64,000 bases of DNA from a virus: the IMG/VR virus record IMGVR_UViG_3300045988_157167, positions 11,551 to 75,550 of that record; one strand, given 5' to 3'. The notes under the pieces were generated by a model. It had not been told where the DNA came from, searched no databases, and worked only from the letters and a program-made list of their open reading frames with translations. Shown here in pieces: positions 3,138 to 53,427 of the stretch. Each line of letters opens with the position of its first letter. Positions within the stretch are counted from its first letter, which is position 1. The translations under genes were made by a program, and so were the position numbers.

Positions 3138-3818
3138 ATACCGATAGGTAAAACTTTGATATACTTTATGTATAATCTCCATCTTTTCCCCCGGTCCAAA
3201 CCGTACGTGCGACTTTCATCGCATACGGCTTTCCATCGTAAAATTTTACGACTAGAGGCCTTCGCTCCTAATAGTTTTATCCTCCTTTATACATTACTGT
3301 ATATAGTAACTATCGGCTATTAATCAACACTACTATGCTTCCTCTGACTTCTTCTATTTTCAACGATATAGCAATCTCCAATAGAAGATCTCCTAAGTTC
3401 CAATAAGATTATCCCTTTTTTTACTTCGACTTAGGTTTCCTCTGTATGTTATAAGCTATATATAACTGACTACTTTAATCATCATATATTTAGTAAAACT
3501 TTAAATGTAAACAAAGTACGAATGTTTACATTAACTTATAACACTTCAAACAAGGATTCGTCTCCTAACCATATCAAAGTTTTTAAAGATGACCACTCCA
3601 TATAGTTATTTATATAACATCAGGCTTTGTCCTTACCGTACTTTATACAATTCGAGTGCTATCTCTTATGCATAACGGGGTATCATCAATATCACTTTAA
3701 AGTAGTTGTGATAGAAAGAAATTTCATCTTTCAATTCATCTTATTAGTTAAAGTTATAAATAACCTCTCAGCTTTTGTTCTCTATCTCAGAGCTTTTATA
3801 TGCTGAAACTTAGCGTAC
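3138..3818 (-). mobile_element. ORF-less group II intron inside the tape-measure gene
   Basis: 681 nt with no ORF on either strand. It starts GUACG and ends GGUAU, and has a canonical domain V near its 3' end. Flanking exons join in frame to give YMGM|AGF. Confidence 0.8.
3198..3231 (-). ncRNA. Group II intron domain V
   Basis: Minus strand reads AAGCCGUAUGCGAUGAAAGUCGCACGUACGGUUU. It has the AGC triad in the lower helix, a 2-nt CG bulge, a 5-bp upper helix and a U-G-closed GAAA tetraloop. Confidence 0.85.
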
Positions 3819-8475: not shown

Positions 8476-9435
8476 CTAATGACTTTCAGATTGAGTAGGT
8501 TTTGCATCTTTTATATTAGCATATACCCCCTCTTTTTTGCTTTCTAATACCCATAAATCATGGTATCTTCTGTAGTCCATAGCCCATGCATTTGCACTTT
8601 GGTTAGTTTCAGGGTCAAATATTCTCATGATATCTTGTTTAGTTACTGCTAAAGGTAAATCTAAAGGCATGATTAAAAAGTTAACATCTAATCCAGAAGT
8701 TGCTTTAATGTATCCGCCAGTAGTTTGACCACTAGTCGAACCATCATATAATTGTATTGCACTGTATAATCTATTTTGTGGAACTGGTATAATTGGGCAT
8801 CCATCAATAGCTGGAACTTTAGTGTTTATTCCACCTTGAGAAAAAGATACAGATGCTAATTTACCTAATGCAGCTTCTTCTATAGCTAGTTGTGTATCAT
8901 AGTTACACATAATAACTAGTGTTCCATTATGGCATTTTTCTCTTAATGTTTTTATACCTTTTTTTATTTTAGCTATAACAGTTGAATTTGCTACAGTATA
9001 TCCATATTCTACATTTTCATCATTAGCTACACCCATAGCAGTTGTTGCTAATTTACTTAATCTATAAGCATCTACTTCAGGTATAACTTTAGTTCTTTGA
9101 AATTCACCCATGATTGTTGTTGCTGTTAATACAAAGTTAGTTTCATCAACATCTTGAGAATCTATTTGGAATTTACGTCCTCTATCTTGTGTCATTGTGT
9201 AAGTTTTGTATTCGTATTTGATAGATCCTTTAGTATATCCACTATCAGCTTGTCTGTCATAGTTAGCAAGTCCGTCCATTGATAATTGAGGTATTTTAAC
9301 TTCTTTACCACCGTTATATTTAACTTGACCTGCATTGGCATCCATCCAGCCTGTCAATGATTCATGTACCATTTGTTTGTCTAATGCATTTTGTAAAATT
9401 TGAGCATATGATATTGTGTTAGCCATGCTAAACAC
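8476..9435 (-). CDS. Major capsid protein
   Basis: 319-aa ORF directly after the scaffold gene, in typical capsid position. Confidence 0.65.
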   Translation of the reverse strand: MFSMANTISYAQILQNALDKQMVHESLTGWMDANAGQVKYNGGKEVKIPQLSMDGLANYDRQADSGYTKGSIKYEYKTYTMTQDRGRKFQIDSQDVDETNFVLTATTIMGEFQRTKVIPEVDAYRLSKLATTAMGVANDENVEYGYTVANSTVIAKIKKGIKTLREKCHNGTLVIMCNYDTQLAIEEAALGKLASVSFSQGGINTKVPAIDGCPIIPVPQNRLYSAIQLYDGSTSGQTTGGYIKATSGLDVNFLIMPLDLPLAVTKQDIMRIFDPETNQSANAWAMDYRRYHDLWVLESKKEGVYANIKDAKPTQSESH

Positions 9436-9453
9436 CTCCTAATTAATTTATTT

Positions 9454-10140
9454 TTATGACAAGCCTAAAATTTGATTTACTTGAGCTTGAACAGGATCAA
9501 CAGAATCTCCATTTCCCCCACCACTAGGATTAAACGGATTATTTGTCATATCAGTTTTAAGGACTTCTTGTCCGTATTCGCTAAATGCATTAGCTAATTT
9601 ATCTATATTCTGTTTACTGATATCCATATCCTCACCAACTACAAACTCTAAGAAATTTTCGACTTGTTTTGGATATTTCATTTCTGCTAGATAAGTACGA
9701 CTTTCTTTGATTCTACCTTCATGAGCTAACTTAGCTTCATTCTCTGCATTTTTCTTTTCTGTTGCAGCATTTTTTTCTTCCATTTCTTTAAGTCTTGTTT
9801 CCATAGCTTCCATTTGTTCTCTTTGAGCCTTTTGTTCAGGAGTTTCGTGTTTTGGAGCAGTTGCCTTTTTTATTTCACTTTCTATAATTCCTGGCATCTT
9901 TTTAGTTTTAAAACTTTCAACTCCTTTAGATACTGCACTGTCTAATTGAGATTGGTTATATCCTTGTATTGCTTTATTTGTTTCAAGGATATTTTTATAA
10001 TCTTCAACAGTTAATTTGTTAACATCAAAAGGTATTTCTTTAACTTCTGCTATTCCATCAATCCCTTTTAAAACTTCAGTAACATCGGCAGTTTCATCTA
10101 TATCGTTTAATTTTTCTAACAAATCTTTTTTGATTATCAT
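9454..10140 (-). CDS. Capsid scaffolding protein (start moved to the Met at 10140 behind RBS gaaagagg)
   Basis: Coiled-coil, E/K-rich centre (EQKAQREQMEAMETRLKEMEEKN). Position is upstream of the capsid gene. Confidence 0.6.
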   Translation of the reverse strand: MIIKKDLLEKLNDIDETADVTEVLKGIDGIAEVKEIPFDVNKLTVEDYKNILETNKAIQGYNQSQLDSAVSKGVESFKTKKMPGIIESEIKKATAPKHETPEQKAQREQMEAMETRLKEMEEKNAATEKKNAENEAKLAHEGRIKESRTYLAEMKYPKQVENFLEFVVGEDMDISKQNIDKLANAFSEYGQEVLKTDMTNNPFNPSGGGNGDSVDPVQAQVNQILGLS

Positions 10141-10158
10141 TTTTACCTCTTTCCCCAT

Positions 10159-10227
10159 GAAGTACTAGCCCTCATAGTATTTAAATAAGAATTTAGTCCC
10201 TCGAAGTACTAGCCCCCAAAGTACTTA
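10159..10227. repeat. Direct repeats gaagtactagccc (x2) plus a partial third (aagtactta)
   Basis: Exact 13-mers at 10159-10171 and 10203-10215, in the G+C-rich spacer upstream of the scaffold gene. Confidence 0.7.
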
Positions 10228-10249
10228 GTTTACCCTCGTTTCGGAGCAT

Positions 10250-10271
10250 AAAAATAAGCCCTCTCGGGCTT
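10250..10271 (-). terminator. Rho-independent terminator (usable on both strands)
   Basis: Stem aagccc/gggctt with loop tctc, flanked by A-run and T-run. Confidence 0.6.
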
Positions 10272-10435
10272 TTATTATCTTGTTAATTTATATATTTCGG
10301 TAAATATTGTATCTGTGATATATTGTTCATGTACATAAGATTTTTGATTATACTCATTTATCTTATCGTTGTATAATTGAGCTAACTCAAACCAATCTGC
10401 ATTTTTACACTTTGCTTTGTTGAATATACTGGCTG

Positions 10436-10627
10436 CTACTTGCTTTTTGCTTTATCCTTAGCGAAACTTTTATATATGAAAGTATAATAATTTTCATCAT
10501 CTTCAGATAAATAATAAGTAGCACCATTTAATTTTAGTTTCTTTAAAGGTTTCTGTTTTGGTCTTTTTATTACTTTAACTTCTATAGCATCACAAGGTAA
10601 TGATACAAAATCAAATAATTTTTTCAT
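10436..10627 (-). CDS. Hypothetical protein
   Basis: ORF track. A stop-free -1 frame continues a further ~55 codons (see findings). Confidence 0.45.
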   Translation of the reverse strand: MKKLFDFVSLPCDAIEVKVIKRPKQKPLKKLKLNGATYYLSEDDENYYTFIYKSFAKDKAKSK

Positions 10628-10733
10628 TTAATCATTCTTTATGTAATTTCTATTTATTTCCAAAGATATAAACTATCAAGGGACTTTTTACAAGTACCTT
10701 AGAATTGATTTTAGAAGGTTGAATTATGTAAAC

Positions 10734-10886
10734 CTATCTTCTATTTCTTTTCCATTTAGTCTTTTTACTTATTCCTTGCATTCTTCTTACATAATTGCTA
10801 AAACTTTCTGACATCCAATCAAACGGAATCATGTAATTCACCTCCCCTGCTTTAGATAGTCCTAATAATTGTTTTATATCAAACAT
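10734..10886 (-). CDS. Small basic hypothetical protein (50 aa; alternative start at 10832 behind RBS ggggaggtg)
   Basis: Read by eye: MFDIKQLLGLSKAGEVNYMIPFDWMSESFSNYVRRMQGISKKTKWKRNRR. Start is coupled to the upstream stop. Confidence 0.4.
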   Translation of the reverse strand: MFDIKQLLGLSKAGEVNYMIPFDWMSESFSNYVRRMQGISKKTKWKRNRR

Positions 10887-10887
10887 A

Positions 10888-11376
10888 CTATTCCTTCTTT
10901 CTTTCTATCAATTCTGCTCTTTTTATATTCAATCTTACTACATAAACAATACTAAGTATTGATAGAACAATACTTGCTATCCAGTCTATAGCATTTGATA
11001 GATGTATATGAAGTATTGCTAATACTATTGAAAATATTGTGTATGCTAGAGCGTATACTCCTACAAAGGCATATATGCCTAAAAGGAAATCATAATCTTC
11101 TTTTCCATACTTATTTTGCTCAACTTTGTAATTCTCCCATTTCTTATAAGCATCTATGTACATTTCTTTTTTATCTCCATTGTATGTACATTCATAATAC
11201 ATTCCGTCAAATAAAGTTGTACTTAATAATGCTTTGTTATTTTGTAAAACTTTAGCACACCAAACCATAAACACGTCATCTTTTGTTATTTGCTTGTTAT
11301 CTGATTTATCTAAATGATTATTCGTATATTTTACAACTTCATCTTTACACCAATCTAAAAACTCTTGTTCGTTCAT
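10888..11376 (-). CDS. Hypothetical protein with C-terminal TM helices
   Basis: ORF track. Hydrophobic C-terminal third. Confidence 0.55.
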   Translation of the reverse strand: MNEQEFLDWCKDEVVKYTNNHLDKSDNKQITKDDVFMVWCAKVLQNNKALLSTTLFDGMYYECTYNGDKKEMYIDAYKKWENYKVEQNKYGKEDYDFLLGIYAFVGVYALAYTIFSIVLAILHIHLSNAIDWIASIVLSILSIVYVVRLNIKRAELIERKKE

Positions 11377-11385
11377 AATTTCCTC

Positions 11386-11631
11386 CTATAATTCTATATT
11401 TTCTATTTTTGCTCTTTCTTCTAATACATTTCTGTATGCTTCCATATATACTAATTGAGTGTGTAATATTTCATATGAGCAGTTAGGAGTAAAATTAAGA
11501 GTTCCATTTTTATATCCTTCTAGCATTCTTTGCAATCCAGCTATTCTATTATCTAGTTGATAATATTCAGCTTTAAATCTATCTTTAAAATCTGTTCCTA
11601 ACATTAAATCTACTGTATCTTGTAATTTCAT
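11386..11631 (-). CDS. Hypothetical protein
   Basis: ORF track; good RBS. Confidence 0.55.
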   Translation of the reverse strand: MKLQDTVDLMLGTDFKDRFKAEYYQLDNRIAGLQRMLEGYKNGTLNFTPNCSYEILHTQLVYMEAYRNVLEERAKIENIEL

Positions 11632-17065: not shown

Positions 17066-17143
17066 TGGCTGGCTTAGTGAGATTCGAACTCACAACAAAC
17101 CATGGTCCGTAGCCATGTGCTCTATCCGTTGAGCTATAAGCCA
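17066..17143 (-). tRNA. trnR: tRNA-Arg (anticodon ACG), CCA encoded
   Basis: Cloverleaf read by eye: acceptor TGGCTTA/TAAGCCA, D arm GCTC/GAGC, anticodon arm CATGG-CTACGGA-CCATG, T arm GTGAG-TTCGAAT-CTCAC. The variable loop is an unusual 7 nt. Confidence 0.75.
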
Positions 17144-17144
17144 A

Positions 17145-18017
17145 TATCTATTAGAAGGCTTGAGATTAGAGCCTTCTGTAGACACCTTTCACGGCATTAT
17201 TTATTCTCCGTTTATCCACGCACCTAATACGTATTGTCCATGACTGGTTGTAATTTTATAGTGCCACAAAACCCTAACACGAGGCACTCTACTATAGTAC
17301 TACTCAACACTTCGTATTCTGTCTGCCTTGCGAGCAACAAAGGTTTGCAAAACCACCATGCAACTTCATGTTAAACGATTCACCCTTGGGAGGTGTTACG
17401 CACTAGATTATATCATGCAATGATATTCTAGTATTAAGCCACTTTCATACTATAAGGGAACAGACTTTTCCTTTTATTGTTTTGTTATCATAGACAATTT
17501 ATCATCCAAAATTAATATTCTCTATGCCTGTATAAATCTGAATTAAATTTGACAGACGTTGTGCTGTTCTTGAAGATTCGTTTCCTTTTGAGACACGAAA
17601 TACTTCACAACATCAGTGTGTTTCATTGAATTCTTACTCCACGTTGTTAATACATACTCCAGCCCTTTCACTGTTTCACTATTAACAATGGTTAGTGCCC
17701 TTTGTTATCAGCATCGGACTATATAACCTCCTGATTATGTCTCGCTACATGACCAATTTGGCGTGAGGTAAATTATTCAGTGCCACCTGAAAATCTTCGA
17801 TATACGGTTCGCCTTTTCGAAGACTGTCCCTCTTGGGTTACGTAGTTATCTCCACTACTATCAATTCATGAAGACGTTGGACATTCAGTTCTGCTTAGAT
17901 GGACTAGTTTAACTAGCGGCATGTAGTCAGCATGCCTTTACACTGCTCACACAATGCTATCCTAAAGATACTAAGCTACCTAAAATAGATTTAGATTTAT
18001 TTTTTAAAACACATACA
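17145..18017 (-). ncRNA. Large (~870 nt) structured non-coding RNA candidate flanked by two tRNAs (GOLLD/ROOL-class guess)
   Basis: No ORF >=60 aa on either strand, and visibly higher G+C than coding DNA. Many local stems, e.g. 17153-17177, 17794-17823, 17918-17936. The minus strand is purine-rich. Confidence 0.55.
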
Positions 18018-18091
18018 TGGCTGGGCGTAATAGATTCGAACTATTATTCCAGGAATCAAAATCCTGTGTCCTACCTTTGAACGAACACCCA
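18018..18091 (-). tRNA. trnQ: tRNA-Gln (anticodon UUG), CCA encoded
   Basis: Acceptor TGGGTGT/ACGCCCA, anticodon arm CAGGA-TTTTGAT-TCCTG, T arm AATAG-TTCGAAT-CTATT; 74 nt. Confidence 0.85.
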
Positions 18092-40778: not shown

Positions 40779-41492
40779 CTAAAATATAATTTCTGTGCTT
40801 TTTTCTGCTATTAAAACAGGTATTCCAGTAGCTTCTTCTACCTTTTCTTTCATTATTTGACTATCTCCGTGTTTGTCACTTAAATGTAATAACATCAAAT
40901 TTCTTGTCTTACTTAAATCACTAGCTTTTAGAAAGTCAATTACATTTTCAAGTTCAAAATGTGATTCTTTTATACGAACGCTTAAACTTGTTTCTATGCA
41001 ATATTCTTCTAAATTTTCTTTGATATAGTTACATTCAACCAAGATACTATTTACATTCTTGAAGTTGTATTCACAGTAGCAAGTATCAGTTATAAATAAC
41101 AAAGTTCCTATGTCCTGATGTTTTATAAGAAATCCTAAAGGTTCTTCTGCATCATGAATAACATCAAACGGTAAAATAGTAAAATTTCCTATTTGTTGCC
41201 TTTTGTTAGCTTTTACTATTTTAGTCCTATAGTTTTTTATGTTTAACTTTTCAAAAGTCCCCTTAGCTGAATATACATCTATTCCATTTTCTGTTAAGTC
41301 TTTAATTGATTTAGAGTGATCTTTATGTTCATGAGTAACTAAACATCCAACAACTTTGTCAATTTTGTAATTAAGACCTTTTAAAATTTCTTTATATTTG
41401 ATACCTGCTTCAATTATTAGAGTTTCATCAGGAGTAATAAGTAAATAGCAATTACCCCTGCTCCCACTTGCTAAAACTTTTAAAACGGACAA
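40779..41492 (-). CDS. Metallo-beta-lactamase-fold hydrolase
   Basis: THEHKDH motif. Confidence 0.7.
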   Translation of the reverse strand: MSVLKVLASGSRGNCYLLITPDETLIIEAGIKYKEILKGLNYKIDKVVGCLVTHEHKDHSKSIKDLTENGIDVYSAKGTFEKLNIKNYRTKIVKANKRQQIGNFTILPFDVIHDAEEPLGFLIKHQDIGTLLFITDTCYCEYNFKNVNSILVECNYIKENLEEYCIETSLSVRIKESHFELENVIDFLKASDLSKTRNLMLLHLSDKHGDSQIMKEKVEEATGIPVLIAEKSTEIIF

Positions 41493-42391
41493 TCTTCTTC
41501 CTCTTGAGTTTCTTCTACAACTTCAGCATCTATTTTCGTATCTTCATCAATTATTTCTGCTTCCATTTGCTCTACTTCATCTATATCTATTGTTTTTTTA
41601 TTAGCTTTTTCTGTTATTTCACTTTCAAAAGCTTCATTTTGGAATGTCACAACATCTTCATCATCTGAATAAGGGCTTCTATTAAATGCACTTGCAAATA
41701 ACTCACTATCATCTGATGTATTTATATATAATTTACAAGCTCTATTTATAACAGTTCTTTTAGCCATTTGATCTGGGAAATTTATATGTGAAGGACTTTT
41801 ACCTTTTGTTGGTCCTTGCGCCCATGATGTTTTTATTTGTGGCATACTCATATATTCCGTATGTAAAACCCCTTCTTCTCCTATAACAACAGCAAATGCT
41901 CCTATTATCTTTGAGTTATCTATATTTTTTAAATCAGGTTTATAATCTATTACATTTATATTTCCATTTTTATACTCAAACTCAACTTCATCACCTTCAT
42001 AGATACAATAAGCTTTCACATCTTTTATATATTTACTTCTTTTCGCTGCAGCTATAGTTCCCATATAGCTTTTAGTTAGTTGGAGTTTATTTCCATGTGG
42101 AATAAAGTAACATTGCTTTTTCGAAGGACTTAATCCTTGAATAATCATATCTAAAAGAGAATTTGCTATACTTACTTTTGTACAAGTTTCTAATACACAT
42201 CTTTTATTTTTATCTTTTGTTTCTTGTAAGATTAGATAAGCTGATTTTAAAGCGTTTTGTGCTGCATAATTCTCTGGTATTACTAATTCTTTACTTGCTT
42301 GTAACTCTCTTACCCTTTCTAAAACTTCGTCTGTAACAGTTTTAGGTTTTTCTGCAATATTTTGAGATTGTTTAATTATTTGATTTTTCAA
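41480..42391 (-). CDS. recT: RecT-family single-strand annealing protein (TTG start)
   Basis: Size, acidic C-terminal tail, and context with SSB, MBL and AAA ATPase. Confidence 0.65.
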   Translation of the reverse strand: MKNQIIKQSQNIAEKPKTVTDEVLERVRELQASKELVIPENYAAQNALKSAYLILQETKDKNKRCVLETCTKVSIANSLLDMIIQGLSPSKKQCYFIPHGNKLQLTKSYMGTIAAAKRSKYIKDVKAYCIYEGDEVEFEYKNGNINVIDYKPDLKNIDNSKIIGAFAVVIGEEGVLHTEYMSMPQIKTSWAQGPTKGKSPSHINFPDQMAKRTVINRACKLYINTSDDSELFASAFNRSPYSDDEDVVTFQNEAFESEITEKANKKTIDIDEVEQMEAEIIDEDTKIDAEVVEETQEEEDCPF

Positions 42392-42450
42392 TACTCGTCA
42401 CTCTCCTAACTTTTTAGTGTTTAATTATGTTTAATTATAGACAAATGTGT

Positions 42451-43698
42451 TTATATCACACTATCTAACCAATAAATTTTATTATATTTCCAAAGTAATC
42501 TACATTTTCTTACATTGACTTTTTTGCAATGTTTTGTAGGACTTTGAAAATTTAATGCGTTCAAATGTGGATATAATGCTGTAACATATCCTTTATGAGT
42601 TTCTCCATTTCTGTAAGTATATTCAACCAAATCTCTATGTTTAATTCCTAATACATTATCTGTTTTTGCTTTTGATTTTCTACGCATCGGTTTAATCATC
42701 CATTCTTTTATATTGCAAGTATCTGGAAAACAATTTGTTATACAAATAGCATCGTTTGAATGAGATTTTTCTATATTCCATTCAATTCTTTTATTTGCAG
42801 TATCTCCACCTGTTGTAAGATGTAATATTCCTAATTGTTTAATATTTTCTCTAAGATAATTTTTACCTTGCATGACATGCATTGCATAATCAAATCTTTT
42901 TGGCTTACTTTTTATTTTGGTGAAATATCTCTCTTCAAATTCTCGTTCTTTCCCTTCTGTCTTTTGATGACAAGAAGAACAAAGAGTAATGAGATTCCCA
43001 ATAGTATTTGCTCCACCAAATCTCTTTGCTCGAATATGATGAACCTCAAGTACAGTATTTGTTTTTCCACATTCTTGACATTTACAACTATCTCTTAATA
43101 TTGTCGCTTTTCTAAGATTTTCATCTAATCTATTATTCTTCTGATATTGCCAATTATAAGGTTTATATCCATCGGCCATTGCTCTTATATCTATTGCTAC
43201 ATCTTCAAGATAATATTCTTTAATATTTATCCATTTATTTAATTGATATAAAACTCTAAGAATAGAATCTTTCTTTTGTTTAATACTTGGCGCTAATCTA
43301 TTAGTTTTTTTTGAAGATGCTCTATTATTGAATCTAGGTTTACGATATCTTTTATGATATCTACGGTATTGTCTATATCCTCTACGAACATCCATTAAGT
43401 GTTTTACATCTTGTCTTTGTTCAATAGTTCCTTTAAATACAACTTTATTTTTACTTGGACATTTTTGAACAATTGCTATTCCAACATGAGAACTACCATC
43501 GTCAATTCCACAAACCATATGACTTTCATCTTCGTCATCAGGTTCAACTTCTTTTTCTAACTGAATTACCATAGGATATTTACTTTTTAATTTTGCTCGA
43601 CCTTTTCTAATCAAATACCAACCTTTATTTACTTTAGTTGGAGCTAAAGGTCTATTGTTTTTATCTACAACAAAACAATATTCAATTTTATTTTCCAT
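42451..43698 (-). CDS. iscB: IscB RNA-guided nuclease (copy 1)
   Basis: PLMP-type N-terminus ([26 protein letters not shown]), Ruv[16 protein letters not shown], an Arg-rich bridge helix, Ruv[28 protein letters not shown], and Ruv[13 protein letters not shown]. Confidence 0.85.
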
Positions 43699-43973
43699 CT
43701 CTGGACACCTTCCTTTCGGAGAATTTTTCGTCTTGGGAATGTCAAGTAGAGGATATGTGTTTCCCTGTTATCAATACAGGACATTAGCATTGTTTCTTGG
43801 TTAGCACTCACAGAGTTTCAGACTGACGATTACATCTAAAAGTGTGTGTTTACCTTACTACTCAACATAGTTCATATCTGCAATATATGTTTCCATAAAA
43901 GCAGTCACTAACCCTTGAAACCTCTTGTTAAGCCATATACAAAAGACTAATGTGTCCACTTTTCTATATGTTT
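43699..43973 (-). ncRNA. Omega-RNA (HEARO-type) candidate for IscB copy 1
   Basis: ~275 nt ORF-free, G+C-enriched block abutting the iscB start. Contains stems such as cctgt-attgata-acagg. A 9-bp hairpin at 43974-43999 sits at its 5' edge. Confidence 0.65.
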
Positions 43974-43997
43974 GACTATATATTTCTATGTATATAG

Positions 43998-44240
43998 TCA
44001 CTTAACAATTAGTCCTGTTGCTAGTAACAATATGCGTTTAACTTTTTCTTTCCTTTGTTCTTCTGTCAGATAGTTATTTTTCTTAGTCAATCTATCTTGT
44101 TTATGTCTCTTAGCTTTTTCAAAATTAACCTTTCCTCTAACTGAAGATAATGTTCGCCCTAAATATTTTGCTATTTCTTCATCTGATATTAATTTATAAT
44201 TTTCTTCTAAAAACTTTTCTTCTTCTATGCTCCATTTCAT
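43998..44240 (-). CDS. SANT/Myb-like HTH small protein
   Basis: KWSIEEEKFLEENYKLISDEEIAKYLGRTLSSVRGK. Confidence 0.5.
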   Translation of the reverse strand: MKWSIEEEKFLEENYKLISDEEIAKYLGRTLSSVRGKVNFEKAKRHKQDRLTKKNNYLTEEQRKEKVKRILLLATGLIVK

Positions 44241-44248
44241 TTTTACAC

Positions 44249-46198
44249 CTATTCATTTATTTTTATTTCTTTATCCTCTGTGACTACCAACTTAATCAAT
44301 TGACCTTTAGTATCTGCTATTTTATTTACACATTCACTATTATCAATGAATATAGGTGCGACTAATTCGAAATACTCGGATAAAGTGTTTATTATATCTA
44401 TACCAGCATTTATTTGACCTGCAGTATTTGCATTAGAAAATGGTACTCCATTTATAGTTGCCTCACAGGTTTCTGCAATAGCTCCGTTAACTTGAGTAGA
44501 GAATAATTTAAAGCTTACGTTCTTAAAATGCTTATTTATATTTTTTTCTAAAAGTTCTACTCTCTTAGTAATAAACTTTTCATATAGCATTATAAGACCT
44601 TCTTGTCTTGCTATTTCTACTCCGATTTGTTTTTCCTCTGCTTTTAGATCTTCTATTCTTTGATTTACTTTCTTGTTATTTTTAACTGCTCCTAATTGAC
44701 TATATAACCCTTTTAGTTGTGTATTAATTTCTCCTTTTTCAATTAAAAGTCCTGATTTATCTGGATATGTATCATCTTCTTGTAAACTTTCTAAAAGCTT
44801 GTTGTTTTCTCTTTTAAGTTTTAATATTTTTTCTTTCGTTGCATCACTAGGCGTATAAGAAATACCTCCTATTTGGCTTTCTAGCTGATTTATTTTTTCT
44901 TTCTTGATGTTTATATTATTTTCTATCTCAGAAAGCTTTAAAGTATAATTTTCGATATCTTCTTGAATATCTTCTTGTTCTTTAACTTTTATTTTGCCTT
45001 TTTCTATTACTTCTTCTTTTCTTCTAGCTTTATCAAGATTGAAGTTTTTCTCTAATTCTGCTTGTTTTTCTTCTATGTCTGATTCATCAAAAGGTCGTTT
45101 ACAAGTAGGGCACTCTGTTTTTATACTACTAAAATCAACTTTCTCAGCTTGAATTCCACTAAATTCTTCTCTTAATTTAGCAGCTTCATTTTTTAGCATT
45201 TCAAACTTTCTAGTTAATCCATCTATTTTATATTCACATTCATTTTTCTTTTGTTGTTGTGAATATAAATCTTTTTCTTCTTTTCTTCTTTCTTCTTCTA
45301 ATATTCTTACTTTATTGTCATAATCTTTTCTGTCAGCTTGTCTTTCTTCTTCGATTAAGTTTTCATTTTCACTTATTTTTTTCATTACTTCATTTCTTTT
45401 AGCTAATAATTCTTTACTACTATTAGCTATATCGCTTATTTTATTGTCTATATCTTTTAACTTACTTTCTTTAAATGCTATTTCTTTTTCAACTTCTTTT
45501 ACATCTAAATCAACTACTGTTTCCATTAATTCCTCGATTTTGTAAGGAATTGACTTTTTATTTTCTCTTAGTTTTTTAATGCTACCTTTTTTACTGTCTA
45601 TTAGCTTTGATACATCTTCTTTTTCTAGATCTTGTTTTACTAAATTTAAATCTTTATCAGTTTTTACAACATCATCTACTGATATATTCCCTCCAGCAAC
45701 TTCTAAGATGACTTTTCTTTGTTCTTTCCAACCAAGAGAAGGAAAATGGAAAGGGTTAGTTAATAATTTAAATGTTTCTTCGTCTGCTATTTCATTTATT
45801 TGCTTGTTATAATCTGATTTTTTAACTGGAATATCATCAATTTCATATTTTGTTGTATTCCCATCAAATACTTTTTCGCTTTCTCCTCTTCTAGAGGTCC
45901 ATTTTTCTTTATATTCTTTTGATAGTTTTACTTCTAATCCATCTACTTCTAAGATGCCTGTTACATGAGGATTTAAACCTCTTATATATTCGTTATTTTC
46001 ATCTAAAGGTTTTAACTCAAATTTGCTATCTCCTTTACTGTTTTTATCGAATAATAACCATGTAAAAGCATCAAATATACTTGATTTTCCAGTTGCATTT
46101 TGGCCTGATATTGTTGTGATGTCTTTGAAATTTATGTCTAATTTTGATATGCCTTTAAAATTGCTTATTGATAGTTGTTTTAATTTTATCTCTTTCAT
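44249..46198 (-). CDS. AAA ATPase, SMC/Rad50/SbcC-like
   Basis: N-terminal GQNATGKSS Walker A, a long coiled coil with a CPTC hook-like motif, and a C-terminal ABC signature region. Confidence 0.7.
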   Translation of the reverse strand: MKEIKLKQLSISNFKGISKLDINFKDITTISGQNATGKSSIFDAFTWLLFDKNSKGDSKFELKPLDENNEYIRGLNPHVTGILEVDGLEVKLSKEYKEKWTSRRGESEKVFDGNTTKYEIDDIPVKKSDYNKQINEIADEETFKLLTNPFHFPSLGWKEQRKVILEVAGGNISVDDVVKTDKDLNLVKQDLEKEDVSKLIDSKKGSIKKLRENKKSIPYKIEELMETVVDLDVKEVEKEIAFKESKLKDIDNKISDIANSSKELLAKRNEVMKKISENENLIEEERQADRKDYDNKVRILEEERRKEEKDLYSQQQKKNECEYKIDGLTRKFEMLKNEAAKLREEFSGIQAEKVDFSSIKTECPTCKRPFDESDIEEKQAELEKNFNLDKARRKEEVIEKGKIKVKEQEDIQEDIENYTLKLSEIENNINIKKEKINQLESQIGGISYTPSDATKEKILKLKRENNKLLESLQEDDTYPDKSGLLIEKGEINTQLKGLYSQLGAVKNNKKVNQRIEDLKAEEKQIGVEIARQEGLIMLYEKFITKRVELLEKNINKHFKNVSFKLFSTQVNGAIAETCEATINGVPFSNANTAGQINAGIDIINTLSEYFELVAPIFIDNSECVNKIADTKGQLIKLVVTEDKEIKINE

Positions 46199-46207
46199 TT
46201 TCTCCCC

Positions 46208-46363
46208 CTATTTAAAAAACTCTAATGGTGATACATTTAAAGCTTTCGAAAGTCCTTTTAGCACTACTAGAGTAGGATTTGTTATAACCCCATTCTCTAG
46301 TTTTGCTATATAGCTTTCTGTAACACCAACTGCGTTTGCTAATTCTGTTCGGCTTTTTTTCAT
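46208..46363 (-). CDS. XRE-family HTH protein (51 aa)
   Basis: Read by eye: MKKSRTELANAVGVTESYIAKLENGVITNPTLVVLKGLSKALNVSPLEFFK. Confidence 0.6.
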   Translation of the reverse strand: MKKSRTELANAVGVTESYIAKLENGVITNPTLVVLKGLSKALNVSPLEFFK

Positions 46364-51305: not shown

Positions 51306-51619
51306 ATATTTTTATAAGTGAATTTTACAAAAGTTCCGTTTTCAGTTTTAGCCTTAACTCTGGCAACTTCTGTTGTTTCATCTATTTCTAGACTTTTAAT
51401 AGCTTGAAGAACCATATTTGTTGTACAATTTTTAGTTTTAAATTCAATAATATCATCTGTATATTTTACAGTTGCATTTGACATACTAAAATCTACCCCA
51501 CAAATAGTTAATACATATACATTAACTTTTTCTCCTTCAAATGGTTCTAGAAATTTTTTAATTTCCCATTGTTCAAATAATTTTTTAACCTTTTCGAGAA
51601 AGAAGTCCCCTTCTATAAT
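51302..51619 (-). pseudogene. 3' part of a small gene split by the IscB element (ORF track lists only 51302..51484)
   Basis: The reading frame stays open 45 codons upstream of the tracked ATG (..IIEGDFFLEKVKKLFEQWEIKKFLEPFEGEKVNVYVLTICGVDFS-MSNATV..), right into the element's end hairpin. Confidence 0.5.
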
Positions 51620-51645
51620 TTAGCCGTAGGCAAATTTAGGAGGGG
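51607..51645 (-). repeat. Right-end (RE) subterminal hairpin of the IscB element
   Basis: Plus strand reads ccccttctataatttagccgtaggcaaatttaggagggg. Confidence 0.7.
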
Positions 51646-51679
51646 ATGAATTTCTCTGATATTGAATCAATATAGAATT

Positions 51680-53062
51680 TTATATCGCAAAATTACTTTC
51701 GTATTGCCAATTATTATTATGATTTATGAATTTCAAGGCATAAATTGAAACTTGTTTATATTTTTTGCCTGGTATAGTTATATACTCATCATTTATATTT
51801 TTTACATAAGCAGATGATTTGCCAGAAAAACCTGTAATATAACCAATTTGACCAAAGATTTCTACTTTATCATTAAGGTAAAAACCATTTGCAAAACTTG
51901 TATTTTTCTCATTTCTTTTGCTTTCAGTGTTTTTAGTTTTTCTACCTTTTCTAGCTGTCGCTTCATGCAGTGAACGTTTTTTCTTTCTAAACTGCTTTAT
52001 TTTAAAAACTTCATCACAGTTTTGATTTATACATTCAACTTTACTTATTGCAATAGCATCGTTATAATGAGTTTTCTCAAGTCCAAGTTTTTTTCTTCTT
52101 GGTGTTGTTATAGAACCATAAGTTATGTTAGCTTGAGGATATTTTTTAAATACTTTTACCCTCATTGAGTTCATAAACGGTGGTTCTTTATAAGTTTTCA
52201 TCTTTTTCTTTTTTATCATCCATTCATAAAGTATGCCGCCTGGTTTATGATTCTCAGATGTGTGACAATCAGTACAAATTGTAGCTAAGTTGTCAGCTCT
52301 ATCGCTTCCACCTTTACTTTTATAAATTACATGATGTGTATGAAGTACTTTATCTTTACTTTTTTTACAAACCTGGCAAGTGTAATTATCTCTTGCAAAG
52401 ACAAAGTATCTCGTATTATAAAAGCCGAAGGCTTCGCCTTGTTGATAATCAGCACCTTCTATTTCTGGATTTATCATTTTAGCCATATCAAATTTACCTA
52501 CTTCAATACTTAAATTGCATTTTGGAAGTAAATTATAATATTTATCAATCCAGAAAAATGTATTATCTATTTTAGACTGTATGCTTGGCGGCAGCCAACC
52601 AACAGGTCTATTTGAATCTATGTTTGTAGATAGTGTTCTCCAGTTCTTTTTGGAGTCACTACCTTTTTTAAGAGTTTTTAGTTTTGCTCCTTTTGGAGCA
52701 TTAAAAACTCTTTTATTTCTGAAGTTAAATTTACATCTTCTATATCTAGTTTTTCTAGAACGTCTACCTCTTCTTAGAATTTTTTTAGTTTCTATTAAAC
52801 TACTTACATCTTGTCTAAGTTCTATTTCACCTTTTGCTAATACTTTATTTTGGGTAGTTACAGCTATACCAATGTTTTTAGAACCTAAATCGACACCTAA
52901 ATTAGTATTTTGTGTATATCCATAAGAACCGTAAATAAGTTTTATTGTAAATGGTTTATAATTTACTATCTTTGCTTTCTTTTCTTTTATTAATTTTCTA
53001 GCACGTTGAGGCTTACAAGGCATCAACGGCTTATTGTTTTTATTAAGTACGTATACTACCAT
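51680..53062 (-). CDS. iscB: IscB RNA-guided nuclease (copy 2; start moved to MVVYVLNKNNKPLMPC behind RBS ggagg)
   Basis: Literal PLMP motif, RuvC-I GVDLGSKNIGIAV, RuvC-II SIEVGKFD, HNH CQVCKK..HTHHV..N..TIC..CH, and RuvC-III HYNDAIAIS. The tracked 28-codon N-terminal extension overlaps the RNA block. Confidence 0.85.
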   Translation of the reverse strand: MVVYVLNKNNKPLMPCKPQRARKLIKEKKAKIVNYKPFTIKLIYGSYGYTQNTNLGVDLGSKNIGIAVTTQNKVLAKGEIELRQDVSSLIETKKILRRGRRSRKTRYRRCKFNFRNKRVFNAPKGAKLKTLKKGSDSKKNWRTLSTNIDSNRPVGWLPPSIQSKIDNTFFWIDKYYNLLPKCNLSIEVGKFDMAKMINPEIEGADYQQGEAFGFYNTRYFVFARDNYTCQVCKKSKDKVLHTHHVIYKSKGGSDRADNLATICTDCHTSENHKPGGILYEWMIKKKKMKTYKEPPFMNSMRVKVFKKYPQANITYGSITTPRRKKLGLEKTHYNDAIAISKVECINQNCDEVFKIKQFRKKKRSLHEATARKGRKTKNTESKRNEKNTSFANGFYLNDKVEIFGQIGYITGFSGKSSAYVKNINDEYITIPGKKYKQVSIYALKFINHNNNWQYESNFAI

Positions 53063-53403
53063 AAAGTATACCTCCTTCGAGTTATTTGAATCACCGACCA
53101 AAAGTGGTGGGCGACACGAAATTTTCCCTTCGCCAATGTTAAGCATACTTCTTGCACCAAGTTGACTGTTCTTACCTCACAGAACTGTTTACAGAGCCCG
53201 AACAACAAAAGGTGCTAGGGAATCACACCAAGCTGTATTGATACACTTAACGTAGCTTATTCGCTGTGCCAAATCGCACATCCCGACAAGCTAAGGCTAG
53301 ACAATATTAAGGCAAAAGCCTTACCCCCAAATCTAGAGTCATACTGGGGCTTATATTGAAATACAAGCCCCTTCTATAATCTCCGTAGGTGATTTAGGAG
53401 GGG
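53063..53403 (-). ncRNA. Omega-RNA (HEARO-type) candidate for IscB copy 2, including the left-end hairpin
   Basis: ~340 nt, ORF-free and markedly G+C-rich. Stems include ggggctt/aagcccc, aaggc-tttt-gcctt, tgtgc/gcaca, ggcga/tcgcc and cacc/ggtg. Confidence 0.7.
53368..53403 (-). repeat. Left-end (LE) subterminal hairpin of the IscB element
   Basis: Plus strand reads ccccttctataatctccgtaggtgatttaggagggg. Confidence 0.7.
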
Positions 53404-53427
53404 TTATTGACTGTTATTATTTTTCAT
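53404..53427 (-). pseudogene. 5' stub (RBS + ATG + 6 codons, MKNNNSQ-stop) of the gene split by the IscB element
   Basis: RBS gaagggg, then ATG at 53427. The stop lies exactly at the hairpin boundary. Confidence 0.45.

Follow-up and report, generated by a model that had tools for sequence, protein, structure and literature searches.

A non-autonomous IscB element with its omega-RNA scaffold, polymorphic among near-identical phages and a candidate for RNA-guided homing

The closest described relatives of the locus reported here are the IscB/OMEGA nucleases (OgeuIscB, PDB 7XHT/8CSZ; KraIscB), whose domains run from a PLMP motif through RuvC-III to a C-terminal region that interacts with the target-adjacent motif (TAM) and whose omega-RNA is encoded directly upstream of the nuclease gene. 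In the ISC elements of the IS200/IS605 superfamily (Kapitonov 2016; Meers et al. 2023, PMC10055086), the RNA scaffold constitutes one transposon end and the guide lies just outside it, most iscB loci lack the transposase gene tnpA, and the flanking motif resembles the terminal motif of the element itself. Because the guide is external, read-through transcription is needed from the upstream genes, with which iscB loci are co-oriented (PMC10055086), and the expected role of the nuclease is to cut the empty site, homing then following. The same domain order, catalytic residues, and arrangement of RNA, guide, and upstream gene occur in a 64,000-nucleotide (nt) stretch of viral DNA, positions 11,551 to 75,550 of IMG/VR record IMGVR_UViG_3300045988_157167 (the window). 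We put the probability at roughly 0.75 that positions 42410 to 44016 are a non-autonomous IscB/ISC element of this superfamily, composed solely of iscB and its omega-RNA scaffold and propagated by RNA-guided homing. Its main parts are as follows.

42410-44016, minus strand: the complete insertion element of about 1.6 kb, non-autonomous and of the IscB (ISC) type, with its omega-RNA end (right end, RE) at 44016 and its left end (LE) at 42410.
42451-43698, minus strand: the iscB open reading frame (ORF), 415 amino acids (aa), with a PLMP-type N-terminus, a RuvC domain split into parts I, II, and III, an Arg-rich bridge helix, and an inserted HNH domain.
43699-44016, minus strand: the omega-RNA scaffold, of the HEARO class, its 3' limit approximate. 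It has a three-way junction at its 5' end, long-range helices, and a terminal GAAA hairpin in which the iscB ribosome-binding site (RBS) lies.

Judged from its sequence, the 415-aa product is an IscB RNA-guided nuclease. It matches the NCBIfam equivalog model guided_IscB (NF040563) at 295.1 bits, against a cutoff of 175, over profile positions 1 to 313 of 314, and it is also matched by Pfam RRXRR (PF14239; E = 8e-49, residues 9 to 187) and Pfam HNH (E = 1e-12). Residues 4 to 413 align with HfmIscB (PDB 9K2Z, chain A; E = 3.5e-240) with few differences. The motifs appear in the order PLAP (residue 17, a variant of PLMP), GIDDG (64), YLEDV (163), CQECG (207), EVHHI (218), GNLITLC (234), CHQK (243), and HSNDA (313), with HNH inserted between RuvC-II and RuvC-III, and GIDDG, YLEDV, EVHHI, and HSNDA coincide with the catalytic positions of 7XHT and 9K2Z. 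In the alignment to OgeuIscB (7XHT), the RuvC-I Asp, the RuvC-II Glu, the HNH His, and the RuvC-III H..D are all intact. The 9K2Z chain has VAHI at the position of VHHI in the window protein, presumably an engineered change at the catalytic histidine; a literature search returned no paper on HfmIscB and no published TAM for it. The identical window protein recurs in contigs of many samples. These results uphold the original prediction, which was made from the letters of the window and had read in this ORF the full IscB domain order, a set of motifs (all present, in the order it gave), and intact catalytic residues; the search with an IscB profile that it proposed scored above the cutoff, and the alignments to OgeuIscB and HfmIscB take in both the RuvC and the HNH motifs. 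The protein would be expected to cleave double-stranded DNA in an RNA-guided, TAM-dependent manner.

Comparative evidence indicates that the block upstream of iscB is a conserved structured RNA. Relatives were gathered from 77 viral and 23 genomic loci, and 37 non-redundant upstream regions were aligned over 338 columns. RNAalifold predicts 66 pairs from these 37 sequences, with compensatory changes in 46, and 97.1% of alignment cells are paired on the predicted structure, as opposed to 82.6% in column shuffles, none of which (0 of 500) reaches the observed value. When the partner columns are slid by 1 to 3 positions as a control, 30 to 45% of cells are paired. The very start of the conserved region already belongs to the scaffold: there, GGACU plus UUGUUAAG pairs with CUUAACAA plus GGUUU to form the helix P1. 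This helix holds two hairpins in 11 folded clade representatives and one hairpin in the Staphylococcus phage JDF86. It is built on the first bases of the element, and the window copy has it intact. The 102-nt 5' domain has a z score of -5.8, and 0 of 200 shuffles fold as well. At the 3' end of the scaffold, a GAAA-loop hairpin contains the iscB RBS, a feature described for the related IsrB RNA (PMC9581776). Two smaller features fall within the scaffold.

43721-43956, minus strand: a sub-threshold match to Rfam HEARO (RF02033), 31.3 bits, E = 0.0004.
43974-43999, minus strand: a 9-bp hairpin, GACTATATA-N8-TATATAGTC, the first hairpin of the 5' three-way junction.

The HEARO model is matched in full (positions 1 to 211), with both strand and place as expected, at a score under the gathering threshold of 83, and a scan at that threshold reports no HEARO for either this or the second IscB of the window, which is described below. 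The first helix of the model is left unmatched at 43699 to 44016, a poor fit that arises because the 5' domain is enlarged in this clade. Because the score falls below Rfam's own threshold, we call the RNA HEARO-class and not a member of the Rfam family. The search with this model had been proposed beforehand, and its outcome is mixed: place and strand are right (E = 4e-4), and the 31.3 bits do not reach 83. The covariation agrees with the earlier expectation of a structured HEARO-class omega-RNA directly upstream on the same strand, and the interval 43699 to 43973 is indeed ORF-free (just two trivial ORFs, 47 to 48 aa) and enriched in G+C, at 36.7% versus 28.5% for the window and 28.3% for iscB. 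The earlier boundary at 43973 has to be moved, as the RNA runs to 44016, about 45 nt farther, so that the hairpin lies within it, as do the final six codons of the upstream ORF. Transcription of this RNA in the phage is presumed.

A hairpin occupies the position of 43974 to 43999 in all clades folded, with variable sequence and length, and in the window it is present in the minimum-free-energy fold. Its first two bases overlap the TGA stop codon (44000-43998) of the upstream 80-aa ORF, an overlap already noted in the original prediction and confirmed by direct reading of the sequence. It might double as a subterminal RE hairpin. We considered it as a transcription terminator and rejected it: there is no T-run and no terminator call, and the structure is a conserved arm of the RNA scaffold.

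The element is a discrete unit with defined boundaries. When the window is compared by blastn with 100 related loci, contigs of the same phage match throughout, and in all other loci (70 to 94% identity) the match is confined to the interval from about 44016 to about 42420. These alignments end sharply, and approximately 90 loci in unrelated contexts share the boundaries of the element. Every copy begins (A)GGACTAATTGTTAAG, and the sequence preceding it is unrelated between copies. Uncertainty in the ends amounts to about 2 nt at LE and at most 4 nt (AGGA) at RE. No terminal inverted repeats occur between the ends AGGACTAATTG... and ...CACTAAAAAG, and there is no target-site duplication, insertion taking place beside a short motif with only a 4-nt ambiguity in the phage pair JDF86/phiSA_BS1. 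The original prediction had seen no IS-type ends, a view displaced by the conserved sharp boundaries of the roughly 90 loci; the hairpin of RE is present and lies inside the omega-RNA end as part of the scaffold. One further structure lies near the opposite end.

42438-42467, plus strand: an imperfect palindrome near LE, overlapping the iscB stop codon, a possible subterminal LE hairpin (DNA folds).

This palindrome folds in several clades, though not in all, with z scores from -0.7 to -2.9, no better than shuffles.

Presence of the element is polymorphic among near-identical phages. A search with the neighboring ATPase gene recovered sibling phages, and among the 18 contigs whose ATPase is 94 to 100% identical, 10 are occupied and 8 are empty. 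In all 8 empty contigs, the upstream gene is joined directly to the RBS of the downstream gene, which is recT in six. Homology with the window runs to 44013 in all 8. In those with recT (loci L104 to L106, L109, L111, and L113), it restarts at 42409 after 11 nt; the other two have a different downstream gene beyond which homology restarts, and their junction and RBS sequence are the same. The element also occurs, with identical junctions, where another gene replaces recT (L022, L112), and that background is empty in L110 and L124. All four combinations of two downstream-gene backgrounds with occupied and empty alleles are thus seen, which points to spread by recombination and not by repeated transposition. 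The exchange of recT is itself of note: the interval 41533 to 42368 is swapped for an unrelated gene starting ATGAATCAAATTGC... in some phages that are otherwise 99% identical, and the RBS sequence is common to both versions. A megablast of positions 41400 to 46300 against phage and plasmid collections returned no match, and the window phage is known from metagenomic contigs only.

Beyond these siblings, the family of IscB elements is found at 38 or more independent insertion sites, and the guide encoded by the flank differs from site to site. A single genome bin (metagenome-assembled genome, MAG) has seven matches, of which five are incomplete or truncated at the end of a contig. Neither a conserved guide nor a fixed synteny unites the copies. 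The family extends to cultured Staphylococcus phages of the Herelleviridae, at 51 to 60% protein identity, where the protein is annotated as an HNH endonuclease or as hypothetical. Occupied copies are found in JDF86 (OQ129426, L126) and VL10 (OP940114, L127); the empty relatives are phiSA_BS1 (L134) for JDF86 and Romulus (L135) and Remus for VL10. HEARO RNAs have already been annotated in Staphylococcus phages by a 2025 paper (PMC13346280) and also in some GenBank records.

The sites of insertion follow a rule. At most of the 38 sites, the first base of the element lies no more than about 20 nt from the end of a long co-directional ORF, and at 36 of the 38 a co-directional ORF comes right after the element, with a Shine-Dalgarno sequence at the junction followed by the start codon. 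Placement between a stop codon and the next co-directional RBS therefore holds across independent sites. At 31 of the 38, the 3' flank carries an exact AGGAG, 6 to 10 nt ahead of the start codon, and most others have AGGGA or AGGGG; in these motif counts, three mis-hits of the regular expression were corrected by eye. The element itself starts with AGGAC at 28 sites.

The pair JDF86/phiSA_BS1 gives the junction directly. Its empty allele reads ...CCTATAA joined to AGGAGAAAAG, and its occupied allele, with the element in parentheses, reads ...CCTATAA(AGGACTTACT...AAGAAGG)AGGAGAAAAG; no bases are lost, the ambiguity is the 4 nt AGGA, and the element sits immediately 5' of AGGAG. On the strength of this junction and the 31 exact flanks, the TAM of the family is most readily taken to be AGGAG on the iscB-sense strand. 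The flanking AGGAG differs by one base from the terminal motif of the element, AGGAC. Pairs of TAM and transposon-encoded motif (TEM) that differ by one base are, as Meers and colleagues reportedly hold, typical of IS200/IS605 elements. Because a strand-specific motif of this kind marks gene starts, co-orientation with the upstream genes would follow. Placement between the stop codon and the RBS would be harmless to the phage and guarantee transcription of the guide. AGGAG is also the experimentally determined TAM of IS607 TnpBs (PMC11061315), and a literature search found no paper that links IscB with AGGAG or with targeting of Shine-Dalgarno sequences.

These comparisons bear on whether the phage has kept IscB for a function of its own, such as cutting the DNA of its host or of competitors or aiding its recombination genes. 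The original prediction leaned this way in describing the gene as a possibly domesticated or immobilized copy, and the window offers some grounds for it: there is no tnpA, the gene is intact within a co-directional early/recombination operon beside recT and an SbcC-like ATPase gene, and cutting of empty siblings would at the same time exclude competitors. The comparison with relatives lacking the insertion, which had been named in advance as bearing on immobility, goes the other way, as 8 of 18 close relatives lack the element and their flanking genes are otherwise intact. The family, moreover, is spread over its at least 38 unrelated sites with a new guide from each new flank, it keeps neither guide nor synteny, and the Staphylococcus pairs are clean. 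Adjacency to recT is accounted for by the insertion rule: the element stands beside recT because the family lands between a stop codon and the AGGAG RBS of the next gene, and no evidence beyond adjacency ties it functionally to recT or to recombination. We regard domestication as very improbable; the gene is part of an ordinary, recently mobile insertion element and not a captured phage gene.

The flanks of the window copy comprise the following.

44017-44036, minus strand: the candidate guide, 5'-CGCAUAUUGUUACUAGCAAC-3', external to the element and encoded by the 3' end of the 80-aa ORF upstream; its 20-nt length is assumed.
42403-42407, minus strand: AGGAG directly 3' of the element, the putative TAM and the Shine-Dalgarno sequence of recT.
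43998-44240, minus strand: the upstream co-directional 80-aa ORF, candidate source of read-through transcription.
41480-42391, minus strand: recT, the downstream co-directional gene, which keeps its own RBS (TIGR00616, 58.8 bits against a cutoff of 52.65; Pfam RecT).

The position of the guide follows the rule for IscB given by Meers et al. (PMC10055086), in which the guide lies just beyond the RNA end of the element. Compared with the empty alleles, the sequence at 44017 to 44036 has 0 or 1 mismatch, and the match is followed by AGGAG in 7 of the 8 close empty alleles, by AGGAA in the eighth (L124), and by AGGAC in the occupied allele. The match of the candidate guide to the empty allele, with AGGAG next to it, fits RNA-guided homing. 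The 80-aa ORF is the likely source of read-through transcription. It retains its length in the occupied allele, where the element supplies its last four residues and stop codon (LIVK-stop, against VLLD-stop in the empty allele). No terminator-like site was detected on the minus strand from 46400 to 42300, and read-through from the operon is plausible because no minus-strand terminator intervenes between the ATPase gene and iscB.

In the window, the junction is less simple than in JDF86. The empty allele reads ...CGCATATTGTTACTAGCAAC AGGAG TTTTATTAGATT AGGAG AGTGACGAGTATTG, and the occupied allele, again with the element in parentheses, reads ...CGCATATTGTTACTAGCAAC (AGGACTAATTG...CACTAAAAAG) TT AGGAG AGTGACGAGTATTG. 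The right junction is thus at the RBS-proximal AGGAG and the left junction at the distal one, and the 15 to 17 nt between them are gone. A scan for a simply joined empty site, TTGTTACTAGCAACA-N-AGGAG, gave no matches because the real empty allele has these 15 to 17 additional nucleotides. Most simply, the element would have inserted at the RBS-proximal AGGAG, with slippage between the AGGA repeats afterward; alternatively, the transposase may have made an aberrant cut at the second TAM-like site.

Such a deletion could be taken as a mark of decay, in which case the insertion would be recent but dead, its protein or RNA no longer working, and its polymorphism would reflect phage mosaicism. Some members of the family are indeed degraded or partial, as shown by the internal deletions of L075 and L093, and the element carries no transposase. 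Nonetheless, the window ORF is full length with every catalytic residue in place, the same protein is found unchanged in contigs of many samples, the scaffold keeps 97% of its pairs through compensatory changes across clades, and P1, which depends on the first bases of the element, is intact. Of the readings weighed here, an inactive relic is the most improbable.

The mechanism best supported for an active element is the published model for IscB elements (PMC10055086). Read-through from the upstream co-directional gene would yield an RNA whose 5' portion of about 16 to 20 nt (within 44017-44036) serves as the guide and whose remainder forms the scaffold. IscB with this RNA would then cut DNA that carries a match to the guide followed by the motif of the other flank of the element, putatively AGGAG. 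This target is the empty allele, as found in sibling phages and as regenerated after excision, and repair from an occupied copy would reinstall the element, resulting in homing, or transposon retention. Within a phage population, the empty site would be supplied by a co-infecting sibling genome. Free-standing phage endonuclease genes spread by comparable homing (review, PMC13565253). Homing of the window element is predicted on this model.

What moves the element to new sites is a separate matter. The window and the related loci were searched by tblastn with an IS608 TnpA sequence and scanned for serine-recombinase motifs. No transposase belonging to the IscB copies was found, whether in the window, as the original prediction had stated for tnpA, or in the roughly 6 kb around each related locus. 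Since no copy carries a transposase, the family is non-autonomous, and a Y1 TnpA acting in trans would, by analogy with other IscB elements, be the default mover. In locus L083, which belongs to the MAG with seven IscB matches, a separate IS605-type tnpA (137 aa, HUH Y1) and tnpB (536 aa) lie at 9041 to 11057, 1.8 kb from the IscB copy, and this tnpA is a possible source of TnpA in trans there. The window itself encodes, at about 18.7 kb on the minus strand, a small serine recombinase with an N-terminal catalytic motif, of the resolvase/invertase type and not like IS607 TnpA.

The same element and nuclease could instead be mobilized by an IS607-type serine recombinase, with its GG core, or by no transposase at all. 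Both junctions contain A-GG-A, given the AGGAC start of the element and its AGGAG flank, and JDF86/phiSA_BS1 has 4-nt AGGA identity at the two junctions. IS607 inserts at GG (PMC13565253), the Firmicutes IS607 TnpBs use AGGAG as their TAM (PMC11061315), and one report places RAGATH-18 and HEARO RNAs together in genomes of Silviavirus phages (PMC13346280). The weakness of the LE hairpin and the lack of a linked Y1 TnpA in every copy lean in the same direction. On the other hand, a serine recombinase is linked to no copy either, the sole motif match being the unrelated resolvase-type gene at about 18.7 kb; the VL10/Romulus pair has no GG at its left junction; and Y1 TnpA is the partner of previously described IscB elements (PMC13565253; PMC9755519). 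The one-base difference between the 5-nt flank motif and the terminal motif of the element also speaks for IS200/IS605, with its TAM/TEM pairs. An IS607-type or transposase-independent mover is accordingly unlikely in our estimation, if less so than domestication.

Several observations weigh against an RNA-guided homing element as set out above. There is no linked transposase, whether in the window or in the approximately 6 kb around the related loci; the LE hairpin expected of IS200/IS605 elements is weak and inconsistent across clades; and the HEARO score of the window scaffold is far under the Rfam gathering threshold (31 versus 83). The window allele is no simple insertion, with 15 to 17 nt of the empty allele missing between two AGGAG motifs, and because these were lost, the present guide may not be the original one. 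Expression of the RNA, its 5' end, and the length of the guide are assumptions, and AGGAG following the window guide is putative as a sufficient TAM. Finally, the enrichment of RBS flanks could partly reflect selection against disruptive insertions and not TAM specificity.

A bolder proposal, which we hold only tentatively and rate below even odds, is that this is a phage-specialized IscB lineage that uses the Shine-Dalgarno core AGGAG as its TAM and whose members act as transposase-free, RNA-guided homing drives among co-infecting phages. If so, each new copy would be placed precisely in the gap that separates a stop codon from the next RBS of a co-directional operon, a landing rule that would keep both genes intact, fix the orientation of the element, and ensure read-through into the guide. 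The inserting agent could then be a host Y1 TnpA or an IS607-type recombinase with a GG core.

The remainder of the region shows the setting of the element. The gap from the iscB ORF to the TTG start of recT (42391) measures 59 nt, as originally predicted. Profile searches also identify an SMC/SbcC-like ATPase, an SSB, and a metallo-beta-lactamase-fold protein in the neighborhood, and together with RecT these uphold the earlier description of a recombination module; its label of "Myb-like" for the upstream 80-aa ORF has no support from any profile. The metallo-beta-lactamase-fold protein is encoded by the gene after recT (40779-41492, minus strand) and has a weak Pfam match to the anti-Pycsar Apyc1 family.

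Elsewhere in the window there is a second, different, and larger IscB element at 51351 to 53420 (minus strand), with an ORF at 51680 to 53062 (460 aa from an internal ATG) that matches NCBIfam guided_IscB at 325 bits and an upstream HEARO match of 80.2 bits at 53118 to 53411, against the gathering threshold of 83. It is absent in the relative L133, whose empty site reads ...AAAATGAAAA followed immediately by CGGAAC, the insertion point lying between the two; TGAAAA is found at each junction of this clean insertion. Two IscB elements, unrelated to each other and differing in flank motif, are thus present in this one phage. Other structured RNAs in the window include a GOLLD RNA (RF02032) at 17157 to 17615 (minus strand; 187 bits, gathering threshold 150), flanked by tRNA genes at 17069 to 17143 and 18021 to 18091, and the catalytic domain of a group II intron (RF00029) at 3138 to 3233 (minus strand; 64 bits, gathering threshold 40), which suggests that a phage gene in this early part of the window contains an intron.

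Merely identifying the locus adds little, in that IscB and its omega-RNA are well characterized, the structure of a close relative has been solved, and HEARO RNAs have already been annotated in phages. Its value is as a natural experiment, in which near-identical phages differ by the presence of the element and a guide matches the empty allele next to AGGAG. Such occupied and empty phage pairs make RNA-guided homing between co-infecting phages directly testable, and likewise the use of an RBS as a landing mark for a transposon. JDF86 with phiSA_BS1, and VL10 with Romulus and Remus, constitute a ready experimental system. Three aspects are of moderate interest: these phage pairs, the putative TAM within an RBS, and the lack of a linked transposase.

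Relative to known nucleases, the window IscB is nearest to HfmIscB, to which it is alike over residues 4 to 413, and its similarity to OgeuIscB is modest (E = 1e-21); it is only 415 aa long, and the beta-hairpin REC linker clade features seen in OgeuIscB are missing from it. The enlarged 5' three-way junction of its scaffold lies outside the Rfam HEARO model. The element has in common with described ISC elements the traits set out at the beginning, among them a co-oriented upstream gene that would supply transcription, a flank motif resembling its own terminus, and the expected succession of empty-site cutting and homing (PMC10055086). It differs from them in several respects: the replicons are phages, so that empty alleles reside in sibling phage genomes and not on sister chromosomes; the putative TAM is the Shine-Dalgarno core AGGAG and not an AT-rich motif such as TTCAT; the LE hairpin is weak; and the window copy has the extra loss of 15 to 17 nt at its junction.

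Two other kinds of system invite comparison. IS607 TnpB with its RAGATH-18 guide RNA (reRNA) is likewise RNA-guided, originates from gut bacteria/Firmicutes, and recognizes the TAM AGGAG (PMC11061315), and RAGATH-18, like HEARO RNAs, is reported in genomes of Staphylococcus Silviavirus phages (PMC13346280). TnpB, however, is Cas12-like and has RuvC only, whereas the window IscB is Cas9-like and has both RuvC and HNH; the TAM of TnpB is 5' of its target and its guide is at the 3' end of the RNA; and IS607 TnpB elements are moved by a serine TnpA, none of which is linked to the window element. The free-standing homing endonucleases of the T4 Seg/Mob type resemble the present case in that a small nuclease gene lies between conserved phage genes and is present or absent among close relatives, and they are expected to spread by cutting the allele without the nuclease gene during co-infection (PMC13565253). 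In those systems the protein itself recognizes the target, whereas here a flank-encoded RNA guide and a short motif would do so, and, unlike the T4 genes, the window element has discrete, transposon-like ends and belongs to a family found at many unrelated sites.

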